Shown in pieces: positions 2,367-36,958 of a DNA stretch of 64,000 bases. The notes beneath the pieces are model-generated. The model saw nothing but the letters and a program-made list of their open reading frames with translations, was not told the origin of the DNA and made no database searches. Location: the NCBI GenBank assembly GCA_051362555.1, contig CM120645.1, forward strand, positions 3,286,001 to 3,350,000. The letters run 5' to 3'. Within the stretch, counting starts at the first letter, position 1. Each line of letters starts with the position of its first letter. Source of the stretch: Lingula anatina. Lineage: Eukaryota > Animalia > Brachiopoda. Made by a program: the position numbers and the translations under genes.

Positions 2367-2486
2367 TACGAACCCTCGAAACACAACTTCTCACCCTTCC
2401 TCATCCACTGGAGACGCAGGGACAGAAGAGAACCCATCAAGGACGCGACAGTTGCAGCAAGAAGCCCCGTACTTCTGAACGATACC

Positions 2487-5400
2487 ATGCATTTGTTCCT
2501 GGCTATAGTGCTGTCTGCCAGCCTGGCGGTTGCCGAAGGTAAGTTCCAACATGATTCGAAGGTCGATCTTGCTCTTACCAAGGGCTTTCACGAACTCTTG
2601 ACTGCATTTCAACCTCTTAGAACGCTAGACCGAACCTAGTGTAGGAACGTTTCCCGGAAACCGAGATTTAAACAGAGACCGTGACAGAGAATCAGATAGT
2701 CACCCATTGTTCTCTGGGCTTTATTCATTTCATCCGGGAAACGCGCTCCACCCCAAAGTGTGTAATGCCCTTGCTTTTAGCATCTTCAATTAAAGTTTTT
2801 GGTGAAGCTGCCCCCACCCACCCACCCACCCATAAAAAGCCTAAAAGTTGATCCTAAGACAAAATATTTAGTGCACTCCAGTTCAGGATAAAAACATACC
2901 GGTCTATTAAAATAAATGTTTGGTACATGTACTGTTCGGACTGCTGGACGCAGAAAGGACGCCGCCCAGTGTAAAGGGGGCTTTAGTGACAGCATGCAGT
3001 GACTAAGATCGGGGAGTGTTTTGTACAGTAACTTTAGTTGAATGACATGCTCTCATGATATTTATACAACCACGCATAATGTAAACAGGAGAAGAAGGCC
3101 CCTAGAGACTGCATGAGGTAGAAGTAGGGGTAAAGGAAGCGGCACATGTAACAACTGGAAAGTAGTTCAATAAATAATAAGAAAGTCCATAACTGAGTTG
3201 TATTTGGTACCTCGCGTAACATGAAGCCAATAACGTCGTCACTAAAGCCCCCTTTACACTGGGCGGCGTCCTTTCTGCGTCCAGCAGTCCGGCCCCATTT
3301 GAGAGTTAAAAAATTATAATATTTTACGTGCCGACAACTGGCCGATCATTGAGCATTCATTCTGATACAAAATTAATGCTCATGCCTCCTTATTAAGACC
3401 ACAGCGATGCCAAATTTCATGGTCGCAGAAAGAACGCAGAAAGAACGCCGTCCAGTGTAAAGGGGGTATTTCTAACATTACAGAGGTATTGTTTAGTGAG
3501 GAACCACTGCCTAATCTGTTGTCCAAAATATAGCTGGATATATAGCAAATATAACAAGGATATGCCACTTTACTGATAACATACCTGACAGAGGCGCCCC
3601 TTCCAATCGCTGAGCGTCGGTGCTTCAGAGATTTTTAGTTCATCAATATCAAAACAAAGAATTCAGTCTTAAGAGAGGGTCCGAGAACATTAATTGTCAA
3701 GTAACCGTACAGCTACAGTCTAGCACACAAGTTTATAACGAGCAAAATATTTTCCTTTGATAACTGCAAGAAAATCAACTTCTCAGATTATGTATATTTA
3801 ACCAACAAACCCGATAACCTGCCGATCACATTCTGGTATGTATATGAATAACCATTCAACGTAAAATGATACCCCTGTATGTTCAAGAACATGTACATCT
3901 GCAATGTCTGAGTCTTGAACTGAAAAATTTTGCAGATGGATTGCACGACTAGGAAAGCTCATTGACAAATATGAAACAAAAGAAAAAGAAATAAAATTCA
4001 AAGTTCACACTCATGAATTTGATGTTCATTATCACATATTGTAATCTAATGGAAATTGTGATGGTTTAAATTCAAAGGAGGTCAGAAAGTGCAAGAAATG
4101 TGTTCTCCAATCTGTCGCATGCCTAGTTGAATAGGTCAATGATAATATTTAGGTATTGTTCTTGAGACCCACTATAGCAAAACACAGTCAAGTTAAAAGC
4201 TAATGTTATATTTTTTTCTTGCCACTGAAATAAGGTTACAAGGGGTTGGGAAAACACACCCTTTATTTTCTTTGCATAAAGGGGGGATTGTACTCAGCGA
4301 ACTGCTTCAACTTATATAAATCGATGACGACTTTCCTTCTTAACGTCGTTTCATCGATTGATTAATCGATTTTAGGTTGATACATGTTAGTTTGGTAACC
4401 AAGCTGAAGGGTCGTTTTTGTGATCTCTTGGTTTATTAATTAGTTTTTCAGCTTATGTTTTTTCGCGATTGATCGATGATTTATTCAATCGTTTCATTTG
4501 TTGTATGGTTGACAATGTAATTAAATGATTGAATTTGCAGTTGATGGATGATTTGATTGTGAAACAGCTCGATTGAGTGGTTAATTAACCAATATGTCGA
4601 ATGACTGGTTTGTATGATAGTTGGTCGTCCAATTAGTAAATGACAGACGGTTACTTTGGTTTGCAGGAGGATACGTCAGCCCTAGGTTCATTGTTAGGCA
4701 CAGGTCTAGCGGCCGTTGTTACGCCTATGCTGACTGGTGGTCCTGGGGCCATCATTATGAAAAATTCCGTGCAGACAATTGCCCCAATGCGGCTGAACTA
4801 GAATGGCATCAGAAGGAAGGACACTGGGGCTATCTGAAGGTCGTAGGCACTGCCGGACATTGTTTGAACCCCTTCGGCGGCTGGGCTCATCCAGGAGACA
4901 ATACAGCAATTTTCCCACATCCAAATTGCTACAATTCTGCATTGTTTGCAATCAACCAAGAGAAGGGCTTCATCAAACATTCTGGGGGCAAATATGTTCA
5001 CCCGTACCCATATAACGGTGAAATGCCAAGCTGGCATTCCGATACGATGATACACGGAGGAACTTTCTCAAATATGCAGTTTGACTTTCTTAACCGCAAC
5101 CTCCAGAAAGTTCAGGTTATTCCAAACCCATCAGTTGCCGGAGACTGGGTTAAAATCAGCTGTTGGGGCCATGTTGGCCCTGGGTCTTTGTCGTATACAT
5201 TTAAAGCTGGCTACTCTAAAACCGAGTCCTCGACGTTAACAAATTCATGGGAAATGACCATCGAAGTGGCCAAAAAAGTCATTACAGCCAGCGTCACCTA
5301 TAGTGGTTCTTACTCAACCTCCTACGAATCGCAATGGACGCAGGAACGGGAAATAACCAGAACAGTCACTGTCACTGTAGCTGGCACCATATGTTTGTGG

Positions 5401-5514
5401 CAGTGGCAGTATGTATTTGAGCAGTTTAATGATAAATATGTGTTCAAACCCATGATTATGCAAGAAACCCGTTCTGACGTGAAACCAACCAATATCCCCA
5501 GAAACAAAAAGTAG
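2487..5514 (+). CDS. Secreted mytilectin-type beta-trefoil lectin fused to an aerolysin-like pore-forming domain, copy 1 (exons 2487-2538 and 4667-5514; 299 aa)
   Basis: Exon 1 encodes signal peptide MHLFLAIVLSASLAVAE and ends at a G|GTAAGT donor. The TTTGCAG acceptor at 4666 is phase-compatible. Motifs WGYLK, NPFGG, ALFA, IKHSGGKYVHP, IHG and MQFDF match the MytiLec pattern. The C-terminal ~125 aa has an alternating Ser/Thr-rich amphipathic stretch (GYSKTESSTLTNSWEMTIEV..TASVTYSGSYSTS) and LWQWQY. Confidence 0.85.
2937..3482. mobile_element. Rearranged (partly inverted) copy of the solo LTR + MITE, with a 54 bp perfect inverted repeat (2937-2990 / 3238-3291)
   Basis: Direct comparison with 16939-17436. 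Confidence 0.8.
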
Positions 5515-5718
5515 AAATTGGTCCAATTACCTGTCAATCTTATTAATTTACAATATCTTTATTTCTTCTTTCTCTGCTATGCTAAATATCATGGATTGGG
5601 TTTTTGTCTCTTTTCCCCCACTATTCTGTCTATTTAATATTCAGATTTTTCTGATGACATACCTATAGAGGTATTTAGCGAACACACAAAGGCGTTTTTT
5701 TTCTGGTTGGGTTTTTGT

Positions 5719-5724
5719 AATAAA
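5719..5724 (+). other. Candidate polyadenylation signal of lectin copy 1
   Basis: First AATAAA noticed after the stop, ~205 bp downstream; also present in copy 2. Confidence 0.35.
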
Positions 5725-7330
5725 CAGTGGATCATTAAGGTTGCTGTCGCTGAGAATTACACATTCTAAAATATGGTATTTGAATTCAATTCATTATAAA
5801 CAGTATCACCATAATGAAATCACTTTTAAACCCAGAAATATAGTTTATGATACACGTTTCTCACTTCAATTGCCTTCGTAGTGTACGATCACTACCTTAT
5901 ATTATATTCTATTCTATACCTCACTACCTCAACTTGTAGTCATATTAACTTATTTTTATTTCTTACTCTGATAATCTCTTATTTTGGTGGAGGAACCAAA
6001 AAAATGAGCAAAATGATAAAAAAGGTTCTGATTCTTTTCTTAATGGACAGTTGTTCAGCATGGAGGACATCTTTCACGTTTGCTGCGCCCACAGTTAGTT
6101 TCACCAAGGAGGTAGTTGTTGGGACTCCTTGGTTTCACACATTTCGATTTTTGACAGTACTTGTAAACCACACTAGACCTGTTAATCCACATATTTGTAA
6201 TAAAAGTAGAAAGACTCAGGACCACAGACACGTGCTTGACTTTTTTTTGTATCACGTCTCTCCGTTTGTTACCCTGAATCCTATTTTTTGCATATTATTT
6301 ATTTATTTATATATCTATTTATTTTGCTTGCCCCTTTTCTTTGGAACAAATTTGTTATTATTTAAAGTTCTGTTCATGGACAGTGTTTTTCACGTTTATT
6401 ACTCTCTTCAAAATGCTCAACAAACAAAGCGTAGATAAGTTTTTAATAATAAATGTATCAGACCGTTTTTATATTTTATAATTATTTAACGGAATCATCT
6501 CCAATTGAATTCCTCGTAAATAATTCAAACTTATGATTGCTTGAATAAGGACCTTATAGTCCATGGGCCAAATACCGACCCCCACCCCCTTAGTGATTTT
6601 TGTTCACTATGTTTTTCTAATAGGCCCTTAGTTTTTATTTTTTTGCGTGTTTGCCAGTAAAGTGGTTGTTGGTGTGTCTTGGTAACACACGGGTTAAAAA
6701 ATGACAGTTCTGAGGCCAACAAAATCTTAAATATTTCAAATGCATTGACTAAATGACATTTAAAATCATTCTAGAGTCATTCTAAAATCATTCTAAAATG
6801 AGAGCTATATTCCTCATTTCATCTTAAATTTGGATGAGAACTTATTTTCATAATACTGCTCATCACTACTAGATGTGTGTCCATGTAAAATGATTAAAAA
6901 AGAAAGATGAAATGGTCAACAATAACCGAAGACTAGGTAACAGCAAATCTTGATTGGCTTTCCAATGAACTACAGCCAAGACATTTCACCTGTTACCATA
7001 AAGCCTTAATCCTGAATATGCAATTAAATATGGACAAGTATTTCCATGAAAGCAGTGTAGAAAGGTCATATAAGATTGCAATTGACTGCACAACTTTTAG
7101 AATTATACGTTTCTTGCATTAAAATTCATACCCGCACTGTCAATTGTGGCCATGTTGAATTTTGGAACAACCAAGCAAATATAATATGGCCAAATAAAAA
7201 TAATTTATATTTAGATTATAGGTTAATTATGTTCAACAGAAAGTGTAAGATACATTTTGAAAGAAAAAAGTAACATTTATTCAGTTAGCACAGCAATATG
7301 TATACACCGTGTTTTGTGATGGCCACCTTG

Positions 7331-8332
7331 AGTTCCTTCGTCATTTCATCCTCAGAAAGTTTTTCACAGTATTTATTATATGCAGATTGGTACTTTTCAA
7401 ATAATTCATCGTACTGTTCCAAATTTGTTTTCACGATATGAAGGTTATTAAAGTCAGTCATAGCATTCACTATTTTGTTACAGCATACTGTAACTGAGCG
7501 TAGCGCTGCACTTTTTCTGTCCTTTAAAGTTTTAATGGTAGTTGTGTCTGACTGTGGTACATCTGCGTTTGTTTCACCGTTCATGATGCCAGTGTTCGGA
7601 ACAAAATATTTGTACTAATATTGTAGACGACGTTACGCATAAAATGACTGAATCATTTATTGTCTTTTAGATAGCACAATTTGTTACAGTTTCGTTATCA
7701 AAATGGACACCGTGGCACGTTTGTTCTTTGTGTACGTTGAGCTTTTGTACAAATCTAAAAAAAAATGAAAAATGACATAAGTATGCGACAAACAATAAAC
7801 TCATAGAAACTAATATAAACAAACTACGGTATATACGTTAAAGTAAAAATAAAAAACATTTTACAATTACTCACATTATATGCTATCTACGGTTCCAAAC
7901 ACAGGTGACCGACCGGTATGCTTGCTACTTGTCTTCTGAATTCTCTATATATTTCTATACCACACACACCCAAAATCACGTGACTGATTACTGTTCGCAT
8001 AACTAAGAGTGACCACACCCGCACAAAAACGAAGTAGATACTCCAGCGCAGTAGACTACTGCAATCATACTGCAAACATGCTTCAAATCTGCTTCGATGT
8101 GGGAGCTAATTAGCATATTTGAAACATGCTTCTATCATGCTGCTAATCTACTGCATTAATGCTCCTCCTCTGTACAAGCCTATGTAATTTTTGAAGTAGA
8201 ATTGCAGTAGGCTATACTGCATTTCTACTGCAAATATGCTCCACACCTCTACTGCGTTTAAAATGCTTCTTTGCTACTTCGATACTACTGCATTTTCGTG
8301 CGGGCAAGGTCATGTGATTTGGTGCACTAACA
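7331..8332 (-). mobile_element. Truncated LTR retrotransposon: 5' LTR (8332-7593), PBS and start of a gag-like ORF (possibly BEL/Pao)
   Basis: TGTT...AACA termini; TGGCATCA PBS-like motif 1 nt after the LTR; helical ORF from 7584; absent from type B units. Confidence 0.65.
8018..8304. mobile_element. EnSpm/CMC-like MITE
   Basis: TIR CCCGCAC(G/A)AAAA...TTTTCGTGCGGG with 2 bp TSD CA; nested in the LTR. Confidence 0.8.
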
Positions 8333-8540
8333 CTTGGATTGGCTGCCATTTTGGCAATTTAACTATGATATTTTTTCAAATAATTTCATTAATTGCTGAG
8401 GCCCAAGTCTTATTTTATAAGATTACAATACAGGTACCCGCGTTCATATATTTGAAATACATGACAATTTAAAGGTCTCAGAAATTATAATTCAAAACCC
8501 CTGTATTACTATGGCCACAGCTAAATCTGTCACACCCATA

Positions 8541-10250
8541 ATAATAATAATAATTATACTACAACTACTACTACTACTACTACTACTACTAATTATAATA
8601 AATTTATTTTGAGTCTAAACTCCATTATTACATGTTCAGAAGACTTTACATATACATAAACAATTACTAAATAATCATTTATTAGGAATAGATAAATAAA
8701 TAAATTACAGAGTTTAACGACAAAAAATTAAGAGTGTTCACATAAAAGTACTTACAGTACATAGCTAAAATATGTTTGTGAAGAAGAAATAATCAATTCT
8801 AGGTAAAAAAAAAGCCTTATTTACATATAGAAAAATTATAAGTATAAGCCTTATTTCTTACAGTGGAAAAATGCAATTACTATAACATTTGTAAAAACAA
8901 TTTAAAAGTTGATTAGTCAAAAAAAATTCCTGAATAGGTATGTCGTTAATTCTTTTTTAAAATACTTGGTAGATTCAATTGATCGGATTTTCAGTGGTTA
9001 TAAATTCCATTCCTTTGGACCTGCTGATTTAAAAGAAATGTCACCATAAGTTTTTAGGCGCATTTTTACCAGCTTATATAAGTAACAATTTGTCTACAGA
9101 CCGCACGTTTCTTGCTGGAACATAGTGAGTGACTAATTCACTTAGGTAGATCGGTGCGACTTTGTAAAAAGCGTCATGAACAAGACTAGAAATTTAAAAC
9201 AATCCTGGCTTGCAGTCAGGTAGCCAATGTAACTCTGCTAAAACTGGGGTGATATGGTTACTCATGGATGTACGGGTTGATAATTTAGCTGAGATGTTCT
9301 GAATACGCTGCAGTATTTTAATGTTTTTTTGACACCCATATAAAATAGAATTACAGAAACCCAATCTAGACGTTACTAAACAATTTGTAACTGTACATGT
9401 AGCTGCAGCAGAGTCAGAGAGGTGATTACGAATTGTGCATATGTTCCTAATATTAAATACTGCTCACTTGCATATGCTAGCAATTTGATTATTCATAGAA
9501 AGCGTTCTATCAACCACCCTCGTAGATCATCAATACACTTAGACAGCTTTTCCATTGATTCATTAGGATTTTTTACATTACAGCATGTTAAAATTTGCGT
9601 ATCATCAGCATAGATGTTATAGCCAAAACTGTGATGTCTCAATATGGCCCCAGTGGGTCATGTATAGAAAGCTAGAGGTCCAAGAACATTACCTTGAGAT
9701 GCACCAAAAGCTAACTCTGACACATTTGACAATATTCCATTAATTAAAACCTGTTGTGAGCGACCTGTATGATAAGAGCGTAAAAGACTAAGTGCAGAGT
9801 CCCTGATATCAACATAATCTTGTAGTTCATGATCGATTGTATCAAAAGCTGCAGACAGGACAAATAAGACTAAAAGAATCATTGAGTGTTCATTGACTCC
9901 ACACGGGAGATCACTTTTTTATTCTTAGCAGTGGTGATTCAGTACTGTGTCTGGCCTAAATGTGATAGTAATCTTGCAGCAATGACCCTTTCAACGGTTT
10001 TTGATAGAAACGAGAGGTTAGACACAGATCTGTAATTTCCAAATGTATCAGTGTCTAGAGATGGCTTTTTTAGTAGGGCTTGAACCACACCTTTCTTGAG
10101 TTGACCAGTGAAAGAACCAGAAACAAAACTAGTACTGATGATGTGTGTTATCAGGTTGATGACAGCAGGGAGTATCTGAACCATGGGCGCTGTCGACATT
10201 GGATCAAGTATGCATGACGTCTTCTTAGAATTGTTAATTATTTTTGTAAT
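8541..10250 (-). mobile_element. Decayed, 5'-truncated CR1/L2-group LINE (reverse transcriptase 3' part)
   Basis: Fragments LLKKPSLD..NYRSVSNLSFLSKTVER, LSAAFDTIDH, QG.VLGP and LQRIQN; simple-repeat 3' tail at ~8541-8600; multiple frameshifts. Confidence 0.85.
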
Positions 10251-10470: not shown

Positions 10471-10929
10471 TTAGTCGACTTCTTCATTAATTCTTTTGTA
10501 ATCCATTCGATAAACGTAATACTCAATCTCATACATGACAACGGGCTTGATATAATGAAATGAGATGGGGTACCTGCTACAGCATTCAAAACCCTGGAAA
10601 AGATTAAGAAAAAATACAGATCAGCGGTAGTTATTGGTAATGAAGTATATTCTATACTGATGTACACGCAAGAGTGCTAAAATATCAAGGCCAAAGTTAA
10701 CATAAAGTAACAGTAGGTACTAGTAGTATGTTTTCGTCGGGATGTCTAGGTTGAACGTTTTGAATCTGCAATAATACAATTGTTCAATAAAGAAAAGTTG
10801 ACATTTGTAGTAAAATCTGTTTAACCAAATTGAACAACAGTGTAGTAAACGGGGCAATTTTACAAAAAAATAAAAATAAAATAATAAATAAATAAATAAA
10901 TAAATGAATAAATAAATAAAAAATAATAA

Positions 10930-16488: not shown

Positions 16489-19468
16489 ATGCATTTGTTC
16501 CTGGCTATAGTGCTGTCTGCCAGCCTGGCGGTTGCCGAAGGTAAGTTCCAACATGATTCGAAGGTCGATCTTGCTCTTACCAAGGGCTTTCACGAACTCT
16601 TGACTGCATTTCAACCTCTTAGAACGCTAGACCGAACCTAGTGTAGGAACGTTTCCCGGAAACCGAGATTTAAACAGAGACCGTGACAGAGAATCAGATA
16701 GTCACCCATTGTTCTCTGGGCTTTATTCATTTCATCCGGGAAACGCGCTCCACCCCAAAGTGTGTAATGCCCTTGCTTTTAGCATCTTCAATTAAAGTTT
16801 TTGGTGAAGCTGCCCCCACCCACCCACCCACCCATAAAAAGCCTAAAAGTTGATCCTAAGACAAAATATTTAGTGCACTCCAGTTCAGGATAAAAACATA
16901 CCGGTCTATTAAAATAAATGTTTGGTACATGTACGAGGTGTGACGACGTTATTGGCTTCATGTTACGCGTGGTACCAAATACAACTCAGTTATGGACTTT
17001 CTTATTATTTATTGAACTACTTTCCAGTTGTTACATGTGCCGCTTCCTTTACCCCTACTTCTACCTCATGCAGTCTCTAGGGGCCTTCTTCTCCTGTTTA
17101 CATTATGCGTGGTTGTATAAATATCATGAGAGCATGTCATTCAACTAAAGTTACTGTACAAAACACTCCCCGATCTTAGTCACTGCATGCTGTCACTAAA
17201 GCCCCCTTTACACTGGGCGGCGTCCTTTCTGCGTCCAGCAGTCCGGCCCCATTTGAGAGTTAAAAAATTATAATATTTTACGTGCCGACAACTGGCCGAT
17301 CATTGAGCATTCATTCTGATACAAAATTAATGCTCATGCCTCCTTATTAAGACCACAGCGATGCCAAATTTCATGGTCGCAGAAAGAACGCAGAAAGAAC
17401 GCCGTCCAGTGTAAAGGGGGTATTTCTAACATTACAGAGGTATTGTTTAGTGAGGAACCACTGCCTAATCTGTTGTCCAAAATATAGCTGGATATATAGC
17501 AAATATAACAAGGATATGCCACTTTACTGATAACATACCTGACAGAGGCGCCCCTTCCAATCGCTGAGCGTCGGTGCTTCAGAGATTTTTAGTTCATCAA
17601 TATCAAAACAAAGAATTCAGTCTTAAGAGAGGGTCCGAGAACATTAATTGTCAAGTAACCGTACAGCTACAGTCTAGCACACAAGTTTATAACGAGCAAA
17701 ATATTTTCCTTTGATAACTGCAAGAAAATCAACTTCTCAGATTATGTATATTTAACCAACAAACCCGATAACCTGCCGATCACATTCTGGTATGTATATG
17801 AATAACCATTCAACGTAAAATGATACCCCTGTATGTTCAAGAACATGTACATCTGCAATGTCTGAGTCTTGAACTGAAAAATTTTGCAGATGGATTGCAC
17901 GACTAGGAAAGCTCATTGACAAATATGAAACAAAAGAAAAAGAAATAAAATTCAAAGTTCACACTCATGAATTTGATGTTCATTATCACATATTGTAATC
18001 TAATGGAAATTGTGATGGTTTAAATTCAAAGGAGGTCAGAAAGTGCAAGAAATGTGTTCTCCAATCTGTCGCATGCCTAGTTGAATAGGTCAATGATAAT
18101 ATTTAGGTATTGTTCTTGAGACCCACTATAGCAAAACACAGTCAAGTTAAAAGCTAATGTTATATTTTTTTCTTGCCACTGAAATAAGGTTACAAGGGGT
18201 TGGGAAAACACACCCTTTATTTTCTTTGCATAAAGGGGGGATTGTACTCAGCGAACTGCTTCAACTTATATAAATCGATGACGACTTTCCTTCTTAACGT
18301 CGTTTCATCGATTGATTAATCGATTTTAGGTTGATACATGTTAGTTTGGTAACCAAGCTGAAGGGTCGTTTTTGTGATCTCTTGGTTTATTAATTAGTTT
18401 TTCAGCTTATGTTTTTTCGCGATTGATCGATGATTTATTCAATCGTTTCATTTGTTGTATGGTTGACAATGTAATTAAATGATTGAATTTGCAGTTGATG
18501 GATGATTTGATTGTGAAACAGCTCGATTGAGTGGTTAATTAACCAATATGTCGAATGACTGGTTTGTATGATAGTTGGTCGTCCAATTAGTAAATGACAG
18601 ACGGTTACTTTGGTTTGCAGGAGGATACGTCAGCCCTAGGTTCATTGTTAGGCACAGGTCTAGCGGCCGTTGTTACGCCTATGCTGACTGGTGGTCCTGG
18701 GGCCATCATTATGAAAAATTCCGTGCAGACAATTGCCCCAATGCGGCTGAACTAGAATGGCATCAGAAGGAAGGACACTGGGGCTATCTGAAGGTCGTAG
18801 GCACTGCCGGACATTGTTTGAACCCCTTCGGCGGCTGGGCTCATCCAGGAGACAATACAGCAATTTTCCCACATCCAAATTGCTACAATTCTGCATTGTT
18901 TGCAATCAACCAAGAGAAGGGCTTCATCAAACATTCTGGGGGCAAATATGTTCACCCGTACCCATATAACGGTGAAATGCCAAGCTGGCATTCCGATACG
19001 ATGATACACGGAGGAACTTTCTCAAATATGCAGTTTGACTTTCTTAACCGCAACCTCCAGAAAGTTCAGGTTATTCCAAACCCATCAGTTGCCGGAGACT
19101 GGGTTAAAATCAGCTGTTGGGGCCATGTTGGCCCTGGGTCTTTGTCGTATACATTTAAAGCTGGCTACTCTAAAACCGAGTCCTCGACGTTAACAAATTC
19201 ATGGGAAATGACCATCGAAGTGGCCAAAAAAGTCATTACAGCCAGCGTCACCTATAGTGGTTCTTACTCAACCTCCTACGAATCGCAATGGACGCAGGAA
19301 CGGGAAATAACCAGAACAGTCACTGTCACTGTAGCTGGCACCATATGTTTGTGGCAGTGGCAGTATGTATTTGAGCAGTTTAATGATAAATATGTGTTCA
19401 AACCCATGATTATGCAAGAAACCCGTTCTGACGTGAAACCAACCAATATCCCCAGAAACAAAAAGTAG
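16489..19468 (+). CDS. Secreted mytilectin-type lectin / pore-forming protein, copy 2 (exons 16489-16540 and 18621-19468; 299 aa)
   Basis: Translation identical to copy 1; same splice sites. Confidence 0.85.
16939..17436. mobile_element. Solo LTR in the lectin intron with a nested MITE (~17199-17421)
   Basis: TGT...ACA termini, 4 bp TSD GAGG, empty site in type B units (~37419). Inner TIR CCCCCTTTACACTGG...CCAGTGTAAAGGGGG. Confidence 0.7.
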
Positions 19469-22492: not shown

Positions 22493-24025
22493 TAATAATA
22501 ATAATAATTATACTACAACTACTACTACTACTACTACTACTACTAATTATAATAAATTTATTTTGAGTCTAAACTCCATTATTACATGTTCAGAAGACTT
22601 TACATATACATAAACAATTACTAAATAATCATTTATTAGGAATAGATAAATAAATAAATTACAGAGTTTAACGACAAAAAATTAAGAGTGTTCACATAAA
22701 AGTACTTACAGTACATAGCTAAAATATGTTTGTGAAGAAGAAATAATCAATTCTAGGTAAAAAAAAGCCTTATTTACATATAGAAAAATTATAAGTATAA
22801 GCCTTATTTCTTACAGTGGAAAAATGCAATTACTATAACATTTGTAAAAACAATTTAAAAGTTGATTAGTCAAAAAAAATTCCTGAATAGGTATGTCGTT
22901 AATTCTTTTTTAAAATACTTGGTAGATTCAATTGATCGGATTTTCAGTGGTTATAAATTCCATTCCTTTGGACCTGCTGATTTAAAAGAAATGTCACCAT
23001 AAGTTTTTAGGCGCATTTTTACCAGCTTATATAAGTAACAATTTGTCTACAGACCGCACGTTTCTTGCTGGAACATAGTGAGTGACTAATTCACTTAGGT
23101 AGATCGGTGCGACTTTGTAAAAAGCGTCATGAACAAGACTAGAAATTTAAAACAATCCTGGCTTGCAGTCAGGTAGCCAATGTAACTCTGCTAAAACTGG
23201 GGTGATATGGTTACTCATGGATGTACGGGTTGATAATTTAGCTGAGATGTTCTGAATACGCTGCAGTATTTTAATGTTTTTTTGACACCCATATAAAATA
23301 GAATTACAGAAACCCAATCTAGACGTTACTAAACAATTTGTAACTGTACATGTAGCTGCAGCAGAGTCAGAGAGGTGATTACGAATTGTGCATATGTTCC
23401 TAATATTAAATACTGCTCACTTGCATATGCTAGCAATTTGATTATTCATAGAAAGCGTTCTATCAACCACCCTCGTAGATCATCAATACACTTAGACAGC
23501 TTTTCCATTGATTCATTAGGATTTTTTACATTACAGCATGTTAAAATTTGCGTATCATCAGCATAGATGTTATAGCCAAAACTGTGATGTCTCAATATGG
23601 CCCCAGTGGGTCATGTATAGAAAGCTAGAGGTCCAAGAACATTACCTTGAGATGCACCAAAAGCTAACTCTGACACATTTGACAATATTCCATTAATTAA
23701 AACCTGTTGTGAGCGACCTGTATGATAAGAGCGTAAAAGACTAAGTGCAGAGTCCCTGATATCAACATAATCTTGTAGTTCATGATCGATTGTATCAAAA
23801 GCTGCAGACAGGACAAATAAGACTAAAAGAATCATTGAGTGTTCATTGACTCCACACGGGAGATCACTTTTTTATTCTTAGCAGTGGTGATTCAGTACTG
23901 TGTCTGGCCTAAATGTGATAGTAATCTTGCAGCAATGACCCTTTCAACGGTTTTTGATAGAAACGAGAGGTAAAACACAGGTCTGTAATGTCTAAATGTA
24001 TCAGAGTCTAGAGATGGCTTTTTTA
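22493..24025 (-). mobile_element. Same LINE remnant, unit 2 (cut by the insertion)
   Basis: Homologous to 8541-10072. Confidence 0.85.
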
Positions 24026-24188
24026 TGCCCCTATTTCACACAGACCACGAATCCCACAAATGGCCATGACTTGACAAATTACGGCGCCAATTACAGCCGG
24101 CCCCCCAGGAGTCAACGGCAACCCCTACCACGACGAAGTCGTCAGAGCAAAAGCTTACCTGAAAGGCTGCTCTGACTGGGCAGACCAC

Positions 24189-24590
24189 ATGCTCAAACAA
24201 CTCGGCAACAACGCCCACCATGTCAGATGCCGTGTAGACTTCAGGGGATGCCCTGATGACGACATCCTTCTGGCAACAATGATCAACATACAAGACAAGG
24301 CCGCAACGGAGCTTAAATCCGCGATCGAGGCCCACACGCAATCTTTCGTAGACAAAGCTAAGGAAAGCTTGGCAAAGGCAGAAGAGAGGGAATCCAGGGC
24401 GGAAGAGCACTTCAACATCCACGGCGTGTACACGCCAGGACACCAACCCTCTACTTCAACGACCGCAAACAACCAGATCATGGAGCAAATGAGACTCCTC
24501 ATTCTCGCCATGAAGGACAAGAAGAAGAGCCGCGTGCTAGCCAGCAAAGTGAAACGAAGACTAACCTCAGTCAAGAAAACCACACTGTAA
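24189..24590 (+). CDS. Unknown helical protein with basic C-terminus (133 aa; frame open from 24075, possibly from ATG 24060 across one TGA)
   Basis: GC content clearly above the flanks with coding-like composition; coiled-coil-like stretch and a K/R-rich tail. Confidence 0.55.
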   Translation: MLKQLGNNAHHVRCRVDFRGCPDDDILLATMINIQDKAATELKSAIEAHTQSFVDKAKESLAKAEERESRAEEHFNIHGVYTPGHQPSTSTTANNQIMEQMRLLILAMKDKKKSRVLASKVKRRLTSVKKTTL

Positions 24591-24628
24591 AATAGAAGCC
24601 ATTGCTTCGACGTCCTAAAAAAAAAAAC

Positions 24629-24667
24629 GGCCCTTTTCAGGGCACCCCATTTCTACCAGGAAAAGCT
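24629..24667 (+). promoter_or_regulatory. Histone-mRNA-like 3' stem-loop plus purine-rich downstream element
   Basis: AAAC-GGCCCT-TTTC-AGGGCA-CCCC 38 nt after the ORF stop, then CAGGAAAAGCT; second copy TGCCCT-TTTC-AGGGCC at 25584-25599. Confidence 0.55.
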
Positions 24668-24713
24668 AAACCTGAATGTTCAAATAGAGCGCAATAAATC
24701 ATACCACAAATAA

Positions 24714-25698
24714 AAGGCGAGATGCCTTCCCCACATTTATTTATAATCAATAAAGCAAAGAAAAGTCATTCTGGAGATAAAGCAAAATGCCCTAATCTCA
24801 CTTAGACCAAATTTTAACACTTACAGGGCACAATCGACTTATAAGACACAAACATCGCAAATAAAAGGCGAGATGCCTTCTCACTTTATTTATAAGCAAC
24901 AAGGAAAAGGAATCCAAAATTAAAAAAGGTGCCCGAAACCTATACAGACCATCTCAGCAAATGAAAAGTCAGTGTTAACACGTATATGCACAGCATAAGA
25001 ATACTAATAAATTTGATCCGAGGTTAAAAAACCTTGCCAAAAATGAAACCAATAAACTACATCTAAACAGAAAGGATTAAGATACACCACGAGAACAGCC
25101 AATCAAAACTCATAATCTAAACAACCAATCAGATCCCGGCCTCGTTCTCGTTTTGACACAATTTCAACAAATCCTCAGTCGACCTCCGACTCTTGAGCCA
25201 TTCACACGCTCAATTCATACCGTCCACTTTGACACAAGCGAGACACTTGTGATCAAGCATGATACTATAAAGCCGAGATGGCTCGTATCATTCACAATGG
25301 CGAGACACCATTGATGAAAACTCGCTAAACGAAGCATGATACTTAAAAGCCGAGATGCCTCGTATCATTCACAATGGCGAAACACCATTGATGAAAACTT
25401 ACTAAACAAAGGCGAGACACCTTTGCTTACCAACCCCTACGTCCCTAAATTTTCTTTTTTTTTTTATTATCGGACTCTGCAGCTGATGAAGGTCACTTGT
25501 TGACCGAAAAGCGCTTTCTGCAACCAGTCCACCCTCCCCCTTCCCCCGACAGGCGAGATGCCTCTATTGTGCCAATCACGAAATGCCCTTTTCAGGGCCC
25601 CCTGTGTAGATCGGTATCTATAAATCTCATACGAAGTAGGCGAGACACCTACTCTCTTATCAAAGACATTCTTTCCCTATAATAAAGGCGAGAAGCCT
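24714..25698 (+). repeat. Array of 11 short hairpins with conserved CGAGAYR-like 7 nt loops; includes a 77 bp tandem duplication (~25256-25407)
   Basis: Stems differ in sequence but remain complementary in 10 of 11 copies. Confidence 0.75.
25478..25522 (+). ncRNA. Minimal type I hammerhead ribozyme
   Basis: Stem I TGCAG/CTGCA, core CTGATGA, stem II GGTCA-cttgt-TGACC, GAAA, palindromic stem III AAGCGCTT, predicted UUU cleavage triplet. Confidence 0.75.
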
Positions 25699-26066
25699 AA
25701 CACACTCTAAGAGTCGCTGTCATTTCTGCAAGGGGCGCTGTAAAAATACACGTCCTCAGAGGCCCAGCTCTGAATCGTGTTATTTTGGTAAAGTGGAATC
25801 TAACTAGGTCATGAGCCCACCACCCCCAACACACACGCAAGAGTGGTAAAATATCTAGGCCAAAGTTGACATAAAGTAACAGTAGGTACTAGTAGTATGT
25901 TTTCGTCGGGATGCCTAGGTTGAACGTTTTGCATCTGCAATGATACAATTGTTCAATAAAGAAAAGTTGACATTTGTAGTAAAATCTGTTTAACCAAATT
26001 GAACAACAGTGTAGTGAACGGGGCAATTTTACAAAAAAAAAAAATATAAAAAAAAAATAATAATAA

Positions 26067-29143: not shown

Positions 29144-31953
29144 CTGTGTGCTCTTGTTCACGCATTCTAACCGAGGACACACACCCGCCCGAAACCCACT
29201 AACCGAGGACACACCTCCAACCGAGGACGTCCTCGGTTGACATAAGCAGTGGAATGCATAAAGGGGCCCATTTCAAGTTAGGTGGTGAAATTTGACGCTA
29301 TTCTGAGCCAGTCCTCGGTTATGCTGTATAGCGCGGGCCAAATTCCCGCCACGAGTGTATCAGAAATACTGTCCAACTTTTTGTCTGAAATCGAGCTATA
29401 CACACGCGTCCTCGGTTGTGCTGTAAAGGGCGGACCAAATTCCGCGTCCTCGGTTGTGCTGTAAAGGGCAGACTAAACTGAAACTAATGTTATATCTCAG
29501 ATGTCTATATATTCAGTAAGTTCATATTTTTAAACTAAAGGTCTTTTTTATCAAATTAAGCTCTCCTAGGCTTTTCATAAAACTCACAGAACTGATGATT
29601 ATAAGTAAAAGAATGGTCAAGATTGAAAATCAGCATGACCAGGCCCTTTTCTTTCAAATGTTATGCTGTTTTTTTTTTTTTTTCAGCATATAAGTAACAC
29701 TGTAAGCACATTTCAGGGAGAACCAATAAGCCTGTTTTCATGAAACTCACAGGAGTAATCAATGTTATCTATATACAAATCAAGTTTAAAAATAAGATTG
29801 ATTGGTTGAGTTTTGAGGGACTTCAGCTTTTATTTGTATATAAGTGGTTTTCCTCAGATTTGATTGTCAGGCATGTTGACAGTTTCGTTATTGAACTAAC
29901 TAGATATGTAAATATGTTAGTGTTTGTCTGAAATTTTCTGCATCTTTACAACATTGCTAGTTGATTATATAAATATGACGGTAAACATGTTATCATGTAC
30001 TGTGTAATACAGTGTCTCAAAATGGAGGAAATGGGGTGATTATTTTCAAAAGTTTTGCATTTTTTTTCTCCTTTTTTCAGTGTACATGCAACACTGTAAA
30101 CACACTTCAAGGAGAACCAATAGGCCTGTTTTCATGAAACTCAGAGAACTAATGATTATTAGTAAATTAAAAAGAATGATCAAGATTGAAAATCAGCATG
30201 ACCAGGCCCTTTTCTTTCAAATGTTATGCTGTTTTTTTTTCAGCATATATGTAACACTGTAAGCACATTTCAAGGAGAACCAATAAGCCTGTTTTCATGA
30301 AACTCACAGAACTGATGATTATTAGTAAAAGAATGGTCAAGATTGAAAATCGGCATGACCAGGCCCTTTTCTTTCAAATGTTATGCTGTTTTTTTTTAAG
30401 CATATAAGTAACACTGTAAGCACATTTCAGGAAGAACCAATAACTTAAAGCCTGTTTTCATGAAACTCACAGAACTGATTATTATGAGTAAAAGAATGGT
30501 CAAGATTGAAAATCAGCATGACCAGGCCCTTTTCTTTCAAATTTTATGCTGTTTTTTTTTTTTTAGCATATAAGTAGTTCACTGTAAGCACATTTCAGGG
30601 AGAACCGATAGGCCTGTTGTCATTAAACTCACAAGAGTGATCAATGTTATCTATATACAAATCAAATTTAAAAATAAGATTGATTGGTTGAGTTTTGAGG
30701 GACTTCAGCTTATATTTGTATATAAGTGGTTTTCCTCAGATTTGATTGTCAGGCATGTTGACAGTTTCGTTATTGAATTTACTAGATATGTAAAATGGGT
30801 TGTTTGACAATTTCTGCGTCTTGACAATATTGCTAGTTGATTATATAAAAATGGTGGTAAACCTGTTATCTTGTATTGTGTAAAAAAAGTGCCAAAATGG
30901 AAATGAACTCGTATCATTGTAGTTTGTCAGATTCAATCATTCACAATGTTCGGAATGGAGGAAATTGGACATTTAAACTTGTTATATTGATATTTTTGCC
31001 ATCTCAACAATTTTCTTAGTTGATCATGTGAAATGGCAGTAAACTGTATTATTTTATGTAAAAAAGTTAAAAATGGAAAGAAACCCATTTCAGTACAGTG
31101 CTCTCTTGTATACATTTAGCATTTTCAAAGTATGACTTTGGAGTTCCATGAACCTGAAAACCTTTGCTAGTCACATTTTCTGAATATTCATGATACTAAT
31201 ATTTTATTATAAAAAATTGATGATCATTATGCTGTTAAGCATTATATAATATTGCATCAAATTGGAAGAAAGCACAATTTTGGGTGCTGCTGGCATGATG
31301 TCCTCAATTGTAAAATTGTGTACTGTGCAAGTCTGTATCCAATGGACGACACTTTGTGTTATCAAAATATAAAATTCATGATAATAAAAGAGTGCTAAAT
31401 AGAAAATAAGCATTATGAAAATAAAATGTTTGAAAACGAATTTCTTTGGTCTTTTATTTTATTTCATCAGTATCCTTTCTTTTCCTAAATTAATTGATGT
31501 TTTATCTCATAATCTTCAATTCTAAAAAAGTGGCAAAGCCCAGCATTAAATATTGTATAACTGTTCATTTAATCATCACCTCTGGTGTTATTTTGGAATT
31601 TACCTTAAATATGAAAGAATTTCATAAAAATGTGAATTTCTGCAAAGTAACGCTATATAAAATTTGCTTTGCATTAAAAGTACAATCATTATTACATGTA
31701 GATGCATGCATGTCCTCGGTTGTAATGTGTAGTGTCTGTCCGTGTGTGTGTCCGTGTGTGTCCTCGGTTAGAATGTAAAATTCTTGTCAGCAAAAAATTA
31801 GTTTTTATAAAAAATTAATTTATAACATTCATACTCGAATAGATTTTACCCTAAATTGATGTTTTTATTTTGATTTAACCAAGGAATAAGATGTCCTCGG
31901 TTGTATGGTGTTGTGCTGATGTCCTCGGTTGGTACACATAGACAAGTACACAC
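29144..31953. mobile_element. ~2.8 kb non-autonomous DNA transposon-like insertion in a (CA)n tract, with an internal ~125 bp minisatellite
   Basis: Absent at the equivalent (CA)n at ~13945-13980; imperfect TIRs; AACCGAGGAC/GTCCTCGGTT motifs clustered at both ends; no credible ORF. Confidence 0.7.
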
Positions 31954-34900
31954 ACACACACACAGCTCTTCCTGTGTATATTTTAATTATGAAGAGAAAA
32001 TAGAGAATTAACATCTTTGTTACTTGTATTTTTACCTGGTCTCGAGGCATGCTGGTCCGTATCTATCTCCTCACGAGAACGAGTTAGTGGTCCCTGTATA
32101 ACAAGTTGTACTGCTATGTTAGATATTACTATGGCGGGTATCACGGTGAAATAAATTTGGCTTCGCCTCATGTACAATGAAAATGAAAATGCCGTATTGG
32201 GGGTAGGTTATATGCCAAATGTTTCTCTCATGCCCCACAGGTGGATTTCCATACGCTTGTATATATTTCTGTGCATGTGTCCTTTGCGACATCTCATTAT
32301 TCCAGTCTCTCGTTTGACGAAGACTGTTTTTCAAGTTAAAGGAGGCCATTGTTCTCGCTTGTACGTACTGTACTTGTATGAATACCTTATGTATTCGCTA
32401 ACGTCGGTGAATATGGACAAAATACGGGATAAGATCTATGATAATATCCTGTAGAAAATATCTTTAACTTTGTTATGGACCTGATATATTCTAGTTTGGA
32501 CTCAAAACACTCATTGGTCCAAATGAGCTTTTTTCTTGTAGATATGCATGTTTATGTACATTATTAGACCTAATTCTATAGGACCTCGCATTTTGCGTGA
32601 CAAATTTCATTGCTGCATGTCTAGCCGAAAATAGGGCAGGCTGTGCAGCTTAGTAAATCGAAGATCGAAGTAAGAGATAGTCAAGGTGCTGAAAAAGAGC
32701 GATGAATATCAACTGGTACTTCCACATGTACATATGGGTGTGTAATACAATCTTTATACACAAACATATAAGTAAAAGACATTTTTTGAGCTAAAGATAA
32801 TTTATGCCACTGGCCCCTGTGCACGTTCGTATTGCGGAAAAAAGTTTGAAGTCGGTAAGGTATGGTTGCGCTTCTCTAAACTTTAAACATTGACTTGTTT
32901 TTTCTTGTTCATGTATGTCAATAAGTAATCATTATTACATGTAAATGCATGCATGTCCTCGGTTGTAATGTGTAGTGTCTGTCCGTGTGTGTGTCCGTGT
33001 GTGTCCTCGGTTAGAATGTAAAATTCTTGTCAGCAAAAAATTAGTTTTTATAAAAAATTAATTTATAACATTCATACTCGAATAGATTTTACCCTAAATT
33101 GATGTTTTTATTTTGATTTAACCAAGGAATAAGATGTCCTCGGTTGTATGGTGTTGTGCTGATGTCCTCGGTTGGTACACATAGACAAGTACACACACAC
33201 ACACACAGCTCTTCCTGTGTATATTTTAATTATGAAGAGAAAATAGAGAATTAACATCTTTGTTACTTGTATTTTTACCTGGTCTCGAGGCATGCTGGTC
33301 CGTATCTATCTCCTCACGAGAACGAGTTAGTGGTCCCTGTATAACAAGTTGTACTGCTATGTTAGATATTACTATGGCGGGTATCACGGTGAAATAAATT
33401 TGGCTTCGCCTCATGTACAATGAAAATGAAAATGCCGTATTGGGGGTAGGTTATATGCCAAATGTTTCTCTCATGCCCCACAGGTGGATTTCCATACGCT
33501 TGTATATATTTCTGTGCATGTGTCCTTTGCGACATCTCATTATTCCAGTCTCTCGTTTGACGAAGACTGTTTTTCAAGTTAAAGGAGGCCATTGTTCTCG
33601 CTTGTACGTACTGTACTTGTATGAATACCTTATGTATTCGCTAACGTCGGTGAATATGGACAAAATACGGGATAAGATCTATGATAATATCCTGTAGAAA
33701 ATATCTTTAACTTTGTTATGGACCTGATATATTCTAGTTTGGACTCAAAACACTCATTGGTCCAAATGAGCTTTTTTCTTGTAGATATGCATGTTTATGT
33801 ACATTATTAGACCTAATTCTATAGGACCTCGCATTTTGCGTGACAAATTTCATTGCTGCATGTCTAGCCAAAAATAGGGCAGGCTGTGCAGCTTAGTAAA
33901 TCGAAGATCGAAGTAAGAGATAGTCAAGGTGCTGAAAAAGAGCGATGAATATCAACTGGTACTTCCACATGTACATATGGGTGTGTAATACAATCTTTAT
34001 ACACAAACATATAAGTAAAAGACATTTTTTGAGCTAAAGATAATTTATGCCACTGGCCCCTGTGCACGTTCGTATTGCGGAAAAAAGTTTGAAGTCGGTA
34101 AGGTATGGTTGCGCTTCTCTAAACTTTAAACATTGACTTGTTTTTTCTTGTTCATGTATGTCAATAAGTAATCATTATTACATGTAGATGCATGCATGTC
34201 CTCGGTTGTAATGTGTAGTGTCTGTCCGTGTGTGTGTCCGTGTGTGTCCTCGGTTAGAATGTAAAATTCTTGTCAGCAAAAAATTAGTTTTTATAAAAAA
34301 TTAATTTATAACATTCATACTCGAATAGATTTTACCCTAAATTGATGTTTTTATTTTGATTTAACCAAGGAATAAGATGTCCTCGGTTGTATGGTGTTGT
34401 GCTGATGTCCTCGGTTGGTACACATAGACAAGTACACACACACACACACAGCTCTTCCTGTGTATATTTTAATTATGAAGAGAAAATAGAGAATTAACAT
34501 CTTTGTTACTTGTATTTTTACCTGGTCTCGAGGCATGCTGGTCCGTATCTATCTCCTCACGAGAACGAGTTAGTGGTCCCTGTATAACAAGTTGTACTGC
34601 TATGTTAGATATTACTATGGCGGGTATCACGGTGAAATAAATTTGGCTTCGCCTCATGTACAATGAAAATGAAAATGCCGTATTGGGGGTAGGTTATATG
34701 CCAAATGTTTCTCTCATGCCCCACAGGTGGATTTCCATACGCTTGTATATATTTCTGTGCATGTGTCCTTTGCGACATCTCATTATTCCAGTCTCTCGTT
34801 TGACGAAGACTGTTTTTCAAGTTAAAGGAGGCCATTGTTCTCGCTTGTACGTACTGTACTTGTATGAATACCTTATGTATTCGCTAACGTCGGTGAATAT

Positions 34901-35412
34901 GGACAAAATACGGGATAAGATCTATGATAATATCCTGTAGAAAATATCTTTAACTTTGTTATGGACCTGATATATTCTAGTTTGGACTCAAAACACTCAT
35001 TGGTCCAAATGAGCTTTTTTCTTGTAGATATGCATGTTTATGTACATTATTAGACCTAATTCTATAGGACCTCGCATTTTGCGTGACAAATTTCATTGCT
35101 GCATGTCTAGCCAAAAATAGGGCAGGCTGTGCAGCTTAGTAAATCGAAGATCGAAGTAAGAGATAGTCAAGGTGCTGAAAAAGAGCGATGAATATCAACT
35201 GGTACTTCCACATGTACATATGGGTGTGTAATACAATCTTTATACACAAACATATAAGTAAAAGACATTTTTTGAGCTAAAGATAATTTATGCCACTGGC
35301 CCCTGTGCACGTTCGTATTGCGGAAAAAAGTTTGAAGTCGGTAAGGTATGGTTGCGCTTCTCTAAACTTTAAACATTGACTTGTTTTTTCTTGTTCATGT
35401 ATGTCAATAAGT
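31684..35412. repeat. 1243 bp tandem repeat, 3 copies
   Basis: Exact 1243 periodicity in sequence and ORF track. Confidence 0.95.
32036..32171 (-). CDS. Putative first coding exon of transferase copy 2 (type II signal anchor and stem); repeated at 33279-33414 and 34522-34657
   Basis: Encodes MRRSQ-IYFTVIPAIVISNIAVQLVI-QGPLTRSREEIDTDQHASRP, then a phase-1 donor matching the phase-1 acceptor at 27764. Confidence 0.55.
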
Positions 35413-36958
35413 ACAGAAGAGAACAGTTTCTCTGATCATCTGTAATATCCTGCGTCGTTTTTCAAAGCAGTTTTACGAAATTATTTTTAATACGAGGTTA
35501 CACGGGGAAAGTGGAAGGTAATAAATTTTAATAGCAGGGAAATTTTGTCACTGGTACCTTTTATGTCGTTTGAAACTCAATTTTTGGCATTAAAGCTATT
35601 AAATATTTTTTGCATGCATCAAAAATTGCTCATGGATGGTTTAGTTGTTTTCACTTAAATTATAATGTTTTCAAACGGGGCAAGAATTAAGGGAGATTTT
35701 AGTCTACGTGATAACGATAACCACAGCATAATTATGCTGCATATTTTTAATCGCTTGAAACGTTTGGCCGTAAGTTTAAGTCGTGTTTGTACTGTTTGTA
35801 CATTGTACTGAATAATCATGTTTTATTGTAATGTATAGAACGAAAAGAGAAGCCATACGTTCGAAATATCGGATCAAAAAAAGGAGTTAATCACTTTTAG
35901 TGACATAGGAACAAAATTAGAAGCTGACCTGGGATACACCTGCCTGAAAAGAGGGGGGGGGGGGCACGGCGATAGATAAAAGCCTGAAGTAAAATTTACG
36001 TCAGGAAGTTTTCAAAGCCTTATTTAAGAACAAAAAGAAAGGAGACCCAATGTTGACGCACGCACGCTGCTCATGACAGTGGGTGGGAAACAGTACAATA
36101 CGAGCTGCATTTTCTACATTTATTTACTTGGAAATACAGTGTTTGCCGGCAATGGAAGCACAAGGGAATAAAACTGAGAAAAAAAAAACCCTCTCCATTA
36201 CAGCTGAATCTGAATTAATTTCGACTTCAACACGCTGGTCATACGTGAAACATTTGTCTTAAACTGTATATTTTTCAAAATGTGCTGACTCTGCCCCTGG
36301 TTGTTCGATAAAACAATATGTTGGCGGCCAGCAGCAATTGGTATCGGTAAACTGGTAAATCAGTTGATATGTTCGACTGTCAAAATAAATGCTTTAGACC
36401 TCAATAAAATAGACACAACTAAAATATACTGTATTAAACAAGCCTTCCAACAGGTGCTCATTGGTTTATGGGCCTGTAAATTGAGCGTTTCTGACCTATT
36501 TCATGTCTTCAACCTACAGTTTGTGCAGTTTCGAGGGCGCCTTTTTAATCTCCATCTCTCCTTCTTTCGGCAACTTTTCTTGCGCTACTGATTGATTCGC
36601 CCGCGATGCTTGTTCTCATGAAAGTGCCAACTATCTATTATTTAATGTTTCATCACTTTCTGGAGTCTGAAGTTACGCCCGTGAAACGTATGTCAGTTTT
36701 AAGTTGATAAAATGTCCAATAGGAACCCGTCGCGTGGTACACGTTATGGTAATGCCACCAATTATTTACCTTATATGGTAAAGATTGTGCGGGCTGACAG
36801 TCACTGCGAGGCTGGGGTGCCGCGTTGATATGTATAAATACGAACCCTCAAAGCACAACTCCTCACCCTACCTCATCCATCGGAGACGCAGGGACCCAAG
36901 AGAACCCACCAAGGACGCGACAGTTGCAGCAAGAAGCCCCGTACTACTGAACGCCACT

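Follow-up and report, generated by a model that had tools for sequence, protein, structure and literature searches.

Units of 14-20 kb, each with a galactosyltransferase-like gene on the minus strand, are repeated in tandem along the 64-kb stretch of DNA analysed here (the window). One of the four array units carries an insert. Comparison with the empty site in unit 1 identified host DNA up to position 24025 and again from 25833; the right boundary of the insert was located at 25832, with an AC ambiguity, and not at 25830 as given in an earlier note on this DNA. The flanks are 98.8% (left) and 96.4% (right) identical to unit 1. Relative to that unit, 591 bp of the target are absent from the insertion site and there is no target duplication.

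The insert (24026-25832), which the earlier note had taken for a single 1.8 kb unit, is composed of two things: a MITE-like end, which had been overlooked, and a copy of a separate multi-copy element. The first 56 bp (24026-24081, plus strand) follow a TTA (24023-24025) and form the end of a MITE-like DNA transposon of very high copy number, outside the hammerhead element described below. This part was recognised by a jump in depth and by branching reads: in run X3 the depth was 154,961 in the bin 24022-24095 compared with 246 in the neighbouring bin, and reads on the MITE end diverged into other sequence past 24066-24080. Three loose ends (24023, 24025 and 24027) show that other copies of the MITE end likewise follow a TTA or a TAA, and the empty site in the paralogous array units is TTA; from this TWA target we presume that the MITE belongs to the PIF/Harbinger type. 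For 24026-24081, neither a blastn self-comparison nor the 25 longest inverted repeats (out of 173) contained a matching right terminal inverted repeat; the missing right end has probably been deleted. The junction between the MITE and the ORF was present without differences in contigs of runs X1 and X3, which may represent this same locus. An in-frame TGA at 24072 was considered as a selenocysteine codon or an ORF mutation; both were ruled out because it sits within the MITE part.

The remainder of the insert (24082-25832, plus strand) was identified by contig comparison as a 5'-truncated, slightly decayed copy of a multi-copy hammerhead family. Parts of the insert were found in 10 of the 21 listed sequencing runs, all from organism A and from four studies; the depths given are sums over contigs aligned at a threshold of 80% and do not represent copy numbers. 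In run X1 the depth was 7-18 over the ORF, 70-106 over 25132-25797, 55 in the bin of the right junction and 0 beyond it, and in run X3 it was 137-449 compared with 2,200-10,200 toward the 3' end. The segment belongs to a multi-copy family with 5' truncation and an excess of 3' ends, in which contigs bearing the ORF are far rarer than 3'-end contigs. Contigs covering the ORF were 5-20% diverged in X3, X5 and X10. In X10, one ORF contig had a depth of 1,173 and the others 12-36, and none was 99% alike; thus, subfamilies differ strongly between samples. For organism B (run X11) no contig aligned on 24062-24720, which is no proof of absence.

Individual contigs link the parts of the element to one another. 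An X10 contig spans the end of the ORF and the first stem-loop as far as 24720, and an X3 contig joins the ORF to 24654-24703 and then to 25089 onward. Another X3 contig leaves out 24751-24968, and an abundant X1 contig aligns to 24939-25209 with its preceding 523 nt unaligned. Some family copies are frameshifted (24181, 24315). In contigs of X3 and X10, family sequence extends at least 255-298 nt upstream of 24084, of which 30 letters are readable.

A stop-free frame of 171 codons runs from 24075 to 24587 on the plus strand; since an equally long one was obtained in 9 of 500 shuffles, frame length alone is weak evidence. Within the element this frame corresponds to a 5'-truncated orphan ORF (24082-24590, plus strand) of 168 codons from 24084, with the stop ending at 24590. 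In relatives from three of the four runs compared (X3, X5 and X10), the ORF extends in frame at least 10 codons upstream of 24084; these codons read P-P-R-x-R-I-P-K-R-P, with two silent changes within the invariant part. A diverged X10 contig stays in frame near the C-terminus, with the pattern T-S-x-K-K-x-T. Among 40 listed differences out of 211, 29 fell in the ORF and 11 outside it; of those in the ORF 14 were at third and 5 at second codon positions, and 13 were silent against 27% expected (p 0.026, the differences not being independent). An apparent stop at 24438 was a single-letter scoring artefact, as 24438 and 24439 change at equal depth in X10. Judged by these sequence comparisons, the ORF is likely to be a real gene, although low recognition by the protein language model (ESM Atlas values below) and the frameshifts in some copies count against it.

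The predicted protein has a pI of 9.3 and contains 26 K+R and 20 D+E in 168 aa, and is therefore mildly basic; the basic residues are concentrated in the last 25 positions (11 K/R). AlphaFold2 placed helices at 19-52, 62-116 and 129-170 in a low-confidence model (pLDDT 58), according to which the protein is predicted to form a long helical hairpin with a basic tail. The earlier note had described an unassigned basic/coiled-coil ORF; overall the protein is only mildly basic, and the 5' truncation had escaped notice.

A search of 1.84 billion representative proteins returned a single homolog, P0002 (E 3.9e-6, 29% identity), an unnamed, stand-alone protein of 170 aa encoded on a 1,420-bp Logan contig. 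Six residues past its Met, P0002 carries RIPK, which is common to the part missing from this copy. The ORF had no match among proteins of 94-300 aa; a two-sequence alignment had none among proteins of 301-2000 aa, in a search that is weak by the tool's own account, and the alignment-based protein search returned P0002 alone, already part of the alignment. No Pfam family was obtained for the ORF at E up to 1, and P0002 gave one sub-threshold DUF7553 match. The ESM Atlas gave no usable match, with recognition values of 1384 (ORF) and 1357 (P0002) compared with 2300 typical of known families. No match was found among PDB sequences, nor with Foldseek, a check proposed in the earlier note, at E up to 0.001 with the low-confidence model; a fold search gave generic helical hairpins only (best Z 8.8, rmsd 4.2, 101 aligned residues). 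Homodimer prediction scored 0.01, which counts neither way. The sequence searches made showed no similarity to proteins of Penelope-like elements (PLEs), and protein-family and sequence searches no matching host gene family. Viral contigs matched neither the protein nor the combination of hairpin and stem-loop. A match in a prokaryote genome was dropped, being 28 residues inside an unrelated 453-aa frame.

A histone-type stem-loop (24629-24644, plus strand) lies 38 nt past the stop, in the place where the earlier note had seen one. In this copy five of six pairs are formed, and Rfam scored it as Histone3 with 22.8 bits (E 0.0034), below the gathering score of 34. Relatives in X3, X5 and X10 carry a complete stem-loop of six pairs followed by AACCA (loose ends 24643, 24652 and 24655; differences at 24645-24646); by depth, the change at 24645 was found in X3 (127 of 169), X5 (75 of 84) and X10 (25 of 25). 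The distance from stop to stem is 1-4 letters shorter in relatives (34-38 nt overall), and histone mRNAs are described as having their stem-loop 25-60 nt from the stop (bioRxiv 10.64898/2026.10.14.759114). The stem-loop has a G-C at pair 2, a U at loop position 3 and a four-base loop. Thirteen nt past the stem, a purine run (24658-24665, plus strand) matching four of the five letters of an AAAGA core is a candidate U7-binding downstream element; this core was deduced from the U7 UCUUU box in PMC5054213, which may not be that of the host's U7. Judged by sequence, a histone-type 3' signal is in the right place behind the ORF and is better in relatives than in this copy. The stem-loop was seen in some subfamilies but not in the most diverged ones; the dominant X10 subfamily had no alignment over 24568-24655, and a diverged subfamily in X3 and X5 was unaligned at 80% across the stop and the stem-loop (joints from 24549 to 24654/24657).

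The second histone-like stem-loop previously reported is present at 25585-25598 (plus strand), but it has five pairs, no ORF ahead of it and no purine run behind. The Rfam matches to RAGATH-25, narK, DUF805b and COG3860 were far below cut-off and were discarded.

Ten well-paired hairpins with the loop C-GA(G/A)A(C/T/A)-R were found in the insert, all on the plus strand; the remaining one of the eleven loop-conserved hairpins originally counted has a mismatch in its stem. Two of them (loops 24718 and 24869) belong to an internal duplication of about 150 bp (24700-24960), identified by self-comparison, with AATAAA directly before a hairpin in each copy. Repeats and a motif scan revealed a six-hairpin array at 25233-25425 (loops 25239, 25274, 25301, 25351, 25378 and 25413), partly a 77-bp duplication, and three further hairpins (loops 25554, 25641 and 25689) which, with the second stem-loop, occupy 25551-25698. 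The same hairpin occurs on both sides of the hammerhead and beside both stem-loops, on one strand.

In 1000 dinucleotide shuffles of the insert, scanned on both strands, the number of hairpins had a mean of 0.39 and a maximum of 3, compared with 10 in the insert; the two stem-loops occurred in 1 of 1000 and the hammerhead in none, and because the motif definitions were read off the insert itself these controls flatter the result. When 3' arms were swapped between hairpins, the Watson-Crick pairing observed (52 of 66 cells, against a mean of 37.3) was reached in none of 20000 swaps, and for the eight distinct stems (38 of 48, against a mean of 27.0) in 11 of 20000. Differences at 25284 and 25358 in the X1 subfamily of higher abundance extend or restore stems. 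Varied but paired stems with a near-fixed loop fit a structure that would be recognised by its loop. Folding z-scores, from 40 shuffles each, were -3.2 (plus) and -0.8 (minus) for 24600-25200 and -2.4 (plus) and -4.1 (minus) for 25200-25830, and do not favour the plus strand everywhere. In the readable parts the motifs are conserved among copies, relatives having a better histone stem-loop and better hairpin stems.

A minimal type I hammerhead (25478-25522, plus strand) was identified by pattern, folding and the published signature, as the earlier note had claimed; like the other motifs it lies on the plus strand, and its core with helix II was absent from the minus strand. Helix I has 5 bp, an extra base stands between position 9 and helix II, helix II has 5 bp with G10.1-C11.1, and an 8-nt palindrome replaces helix III. 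The marks of PLE minimal hammerheads (extra base, G10.1-C11.1, short helix I and palindrome) are listed in PMC4209133; all are present, and by its sequence the motif is of the PLE kind. Rfam gave no hammerhead match in the insert, and no hammerhead variants were seen among 40 listed of 298 differences. The active fold reached -29.5 kcal/mol as a dimer (cofold minimum -31.3) and -5.0 kcal/mol as a monomer (minimum -10.8). Cleavage is predicted after 25517, at the triplet UUU, which is a poor cleavage site. Self-cleavage is uncertain, since PMC4209133 describes low activity for such motifs and the anole PLE hammerhead is described as protein-assisted, and as dispensable for insertion in vitro, in PMC11167929. 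Hammerhead-pattern loci elsewhere (3 viral, 54 metagenome) were dropped as chance: apart from the pattern itself, the 57 showed no match to the insert or to the proteins (best blastn E 0.19).

Past the hammerhead there are three ATGs, of which only that at 25811 is open to the right junction; it has a purine at -3 and lies 22 nt before the end. The start codon and first seven codons (M-S-P-P-P-P-T) of this frame, cut by the junction, occupy 25811-25832 (plus strand), and a diverged relative keeps CATGA at the 25811 site and runs on (loose end at X3 25787). In a head-to-tail arrangement, the following unit's copy of the element's own ORF likely has this frame as its N-terminus. With the seven right-end codons added to the six invariant upstream codons, the protein would come to 181 aa and the unit to about 1,766 bp, close to the layout of P0002; the fit rests on position and composition, the two ends being seen in no one contig. 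PLE copies are described as ending at reverse transcription start sites inside the ORF, and reverse transcription of the anole PLE as starting in an AC-rich stretch within it (PMC11167929); with the start codon at the right end, this is the basis for reading the element as a head-to-tail unit. No joint leading from the 3' end back to where the ORF begins was present among 13 joints from runs X1, X3, X12 and X15. This absence is weak but real counter-evidence, because the long contigs stem from diverged copies whose non-coding part may be less than 80% alike. No second hammerhead or second unit was found within the window, and no reverse transcriptase (RT) or GIY-YIG frame within the insert.

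None of the runs listed as containing parts of the insert was an RNA run, which has no bearing on expression. RNA reads were aligned from two runs, of which about 6% each was sampled. These yielded 160 and 280 aligned reads, of which 0 and 2 were 99% alike. Coverage peaked on the MITE end and was thin on the ORF (depth under 5), with reads in both directions along the element. On the ORF the first mate was always on the plus strand, which would make these reads antisense if the library is of the common stranded kind. No pile-up of starts or ends and no unit-length joint were detected in the same 6% of each run; one library was poly(A)-selected and would miss RNA ending in a stem-loop, and the other was prepared with unspecified selection. 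The RNA reads look like passengers in host transcripts.

The element resembles PLEs in its minimal hammerhead of type I (short helix I, an additional base ahead of helix II, G10.1-C11.1 and a palindromic helix III), in its excess of 3' ends and in a right end that likely falls in an AC-rich stretch among an ORF's first codons. It differs from them in having no RT/GIY-YIG in the insert, an orphan ORF of about 180 aa, a histone-type stem-loop after the stop, eleven loop-conserved hairpins, a helix II of 5 bp instead of 7-8 and no target duplication. Like the animal non-LTR retrozymes described in PMC7229834 and bioRxiv 10.64898/2026.07.22.740005, it is likely non-autonomous and PLE-derived, each unit having a single type I hammerhead which depends on a partner for folding. 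Retrozymes, however, are defined as non-coding tandem units (PMC7229834) with family consensus sequences of 51-972 bp (bioRxiv 10.64898/2026.07.22.740005), whereas this element has a conserved ORF, a length of about 1.77 kb, a minimal instead of a canonical hammerhead and one hammerhead in the 64-kb window. With the Terminons/Athena elements of bdelloid rotifers, as described in PMC6431247, it has in common a coiled-coil accessory ORF, a hammerhead near the 3' end and 5' truncation; it differs in having no telomeric repeat right behind the hammerhead (310 nt follow), where Terminons have reverse-complement telomeric repeats and attach at telomeres, an intrachromosomal site and no RT seen. Compared with the 3' end of replication-dependent histone mRNAs (RF00032; bioRxiv 10.64898/2026.10.14.759114; PMC5054213), relatives have the six-pair stem, four-base loop, pair-2 G-C and loop-3 U, and the A-rich 5' flank, the position 34-38 nt past the stop and the downstream purine run are also shared; the differences are that the ORF is not a histone by Pfam and that this copy falls under the Rfam cut-off.

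In our reading, to which we give an even chance, the segment 24082-25832 would be a near-complete, 5'-truncated head-to-tail unit of about 1.77 kb, of a non-autonomous PLE type without reverse transcriptase, encoding a helical protein of about 181 aa whose mRNA has a histone-type end. Such an element likely borrows the copying enzyme of another retroelement and the host pathway for histone messages. Of the origins put forward previously, a PLE-dependent satellite, or an element resembling a protein-coding retrozyme, is the best reading, given the PLE-type hammerhead, the multiple copies, the 3' enrichment, the conserved ORF and the absence of an RT in the insert. The element works like a non-autonomous PLE; it falls outside the definition of a retrozyme, and the insert lacks the frame for a telomerase-like RT and GIY-YIG endonuclease by which an autonomous PLE is defined.

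In the proposed mechanism, tandem units would be transcribed, and SLBP and U7 would cut part of the transcripts past the first stem-loop, giving a message without poly(A), timed to S phase or stored in the egg. Read-through RNAs would retain the hairpin array, to which either the element's own protein or the RT of a helper likely binds, and two hammerheads, paired by their palindromes, may cut multimers. The protein would likely act as an RNP scaffold, and its origin may perhaps lie in the N-terminal domain of PLE proteins, which is long and helical; in the anole PLE, an extended helix is predicted for residues 27-173 (PMC11167929). Acting in trans, the RT-endonuclease of a PLE would start within the first codons of the ORF, as in the anole PLE, and copy back almost one unit; such copying would yield short 3' copies in large number but few that include the ORF. 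At this locus, a copy would have joined the MITE end at the TTA, and what remained of the MITE would have been lost together with 591 bp of host DNA.

It is possible, though somewhat unlikely, that the insert is instead the terminal 1.75 kb, on the 3' side, of an autonomous PLE-like element of greater length, either Terminon-like or a PLE of a new kind with two ORFs. The orphan ORF, with its histone-type end, would then be the last of the accessory coiled-coil genes, and the first ORF of the next unit would start from the ATG at 25811. The hammerhead and the 3' enrichment would be the same, Terminons are described as having co-oriented coiled-coil ORFs and as mostly 5'-truncated (PMC6431247), the family's sequence runs on upstream for 255-298 nt or more, and none of the 13 joints was a tandem one. 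Against this, the sole homolog is a stand-alone 170-aa protein and the (weak) search gave no match among proteins of 301-2000 aa; the hammerhead lies 310 nt from the end, with no adjoining telomeric repeat and in a gene array, and canonical PLE ORFs are described as ending in GIY-YIG or RT (PMC8557442). We find it improbable that a PLE end captured a host gene with a pre-existing histone-type 3' end and that the composite was amplified in trans as cargo, its protein irrelevant to mobility. PLEs are described as able to mobilise host genes between terminal repeats (PMC3846280), and both the rarity of ORF contigs and the unaligned 523 nt of the abundant X1 contig would fit; but the protein matched no host gene family in the searches made, the ORF is retained in each of several subfamilies that lie 10-20% apart, and the module of stem-loop and hairpin recurs past the hammerhead, which argues that it belongs to the element's own vocabulary.

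The recurrence of one hairpin around the hammerhead and beside both stem-loops, on a single strand, also makes it very improbable that the array came from a tyrosine-recombinase (Ngaro/DIRS) element or other repeat and that unrelated pieces make up the insert as a mosaic. Its left 56 bp do come from elsewhere, but the X10 contig reaching from the end of the ORF to 24720 and the X3 contig joining the ORF, 24654-24703 and 25089 onward speak for one element, and no recombinase frame was found. Least probable of all is that the insert arose by reverse transcription of a replicating circular RNA, viroid-like or deltavirus-like, akin to the endogenised viroid-like RNA once suggested. A length of about 1.75 kb with one ORF of about 180 aa recalls HDV-like RNAs of 1,500-1,700 nt (PMC7936874), and a circle would give a near-unit-length copy. 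That origin is contradicted by the lack of a rod fold, with 49% of bases paired in the linear or circular minimum-energy fold, by a strong skew of A over T (600 against 364), and by a ribozyme whose core with helix II is on the plus strand only and is of minimal type I, whereas toad and termite HDV-like RNAs have an extended type III (PMC7936874). The protein had no Pfam match at E up to 1, delta antigen included, and gave generic helical matches only in fold searches with its low-confidence model; the family has many diverged DNA copies.

Two traits of this PLE-type element are unusual: the conserved orphan ORF with no RT in the insert and the histone-type 3' signal; the family may still be present in PLE consensus sets, Repbase or Dfam. 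In the literature (titles and abstract openings, chiefly of non-subscription papers) no histone-type 3' end in a retroelement and no coding animal retrozyme were found. According to PMC5054213, histone mRNAs appear to be the sole mRNAs processed by the stem-loop/U7 route; if our reading is true, a non-histone message on the histone 3'-end pathway would break this rule. The expression of a selfish element would then be timed to DNA replication or early embryos, and would escape poly(A)-based surveys. A short modular RNA of this kind would make testable the role of the PLE hammerhead in vivo and the RNA structure recognised by the PLE protein. More tentatively, the element may stand for a class of protein-coding PLE satellites, RT-less units of about 1.8 kb that would depend on a helper PLE and have a helical RNA-packaging protein of their own, with an mRNA ended by SLBP and the U7 snRNP. 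The gap that separates full PLEs from the animal retrozymes, described as non-coding, would be closed by a PLE satellite that has a coding region but no RT.

Analysis of the hammerhead element showed that the motif AATAAA occurs at positions 24709, 24860 and 25680, in each case immediately 5' of one of three hairpins; the element therefore holds both poly(A) signals and histone-type signals (histone-like stem-loops). In the sequencing runs whose contigs contain diverged relatives of the element (X3, X5 and X10), the coding sequence just 5' of the point at which the window copy is truncated, equivalent to 24054-24083, can fold into a small hairpin whose loop is GAGA (3/3 runs). This coding hairpin, located before position 24084, is similar to the non-coding, loop-conserved hairpin array of the element itself. 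It may mark a protein-binding site that lies within the start of the ORF; alternatively, it may be a side effect of the codons for RIPK that are read there.

For run X10, over the region equivalent to 24084-24560, one subfamily approximately 83% identical to the window copy was found at a contig depth near 1,000, against 12-36 for the other subfamilies. This difference in depth suggests that, in the X10 sample, the subfamily has undergone a recent burst or forms a homogeneous tandem array.

Decayed reverse-transcriptase-like frames (approximately 23147-23835, minus strand) adjoin the left side of the insert and are common to all units of the array. They presumably belong to a LINE-type repeat, a label taken from the motif; a Pfam search with a 74-aa piece of these frames yielded no match.

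Self-comparison of the window revealed a 306-bp inversion (2937-3242 versus 16940-17245) and a difference between units 3 and 4 in the copy number of a 99.9% identical 1,243-bp tandem repeat, which occurs in runs at 31684-35413 and 49026-55241.

Among the four units, only unit 1 has the final coding exon of the galactosyltransferase-like gene (10474-10620, minus strand). Unit-to-unit comparison showed that in unit 2 this exon was removed by the 591-bp deletion at the insert. Its absence from units 3 and 4 looks, from the sequence, like the result of a separate deletion. The galactosyltransferase-like gene may be truncated in three of its four copies in the window.
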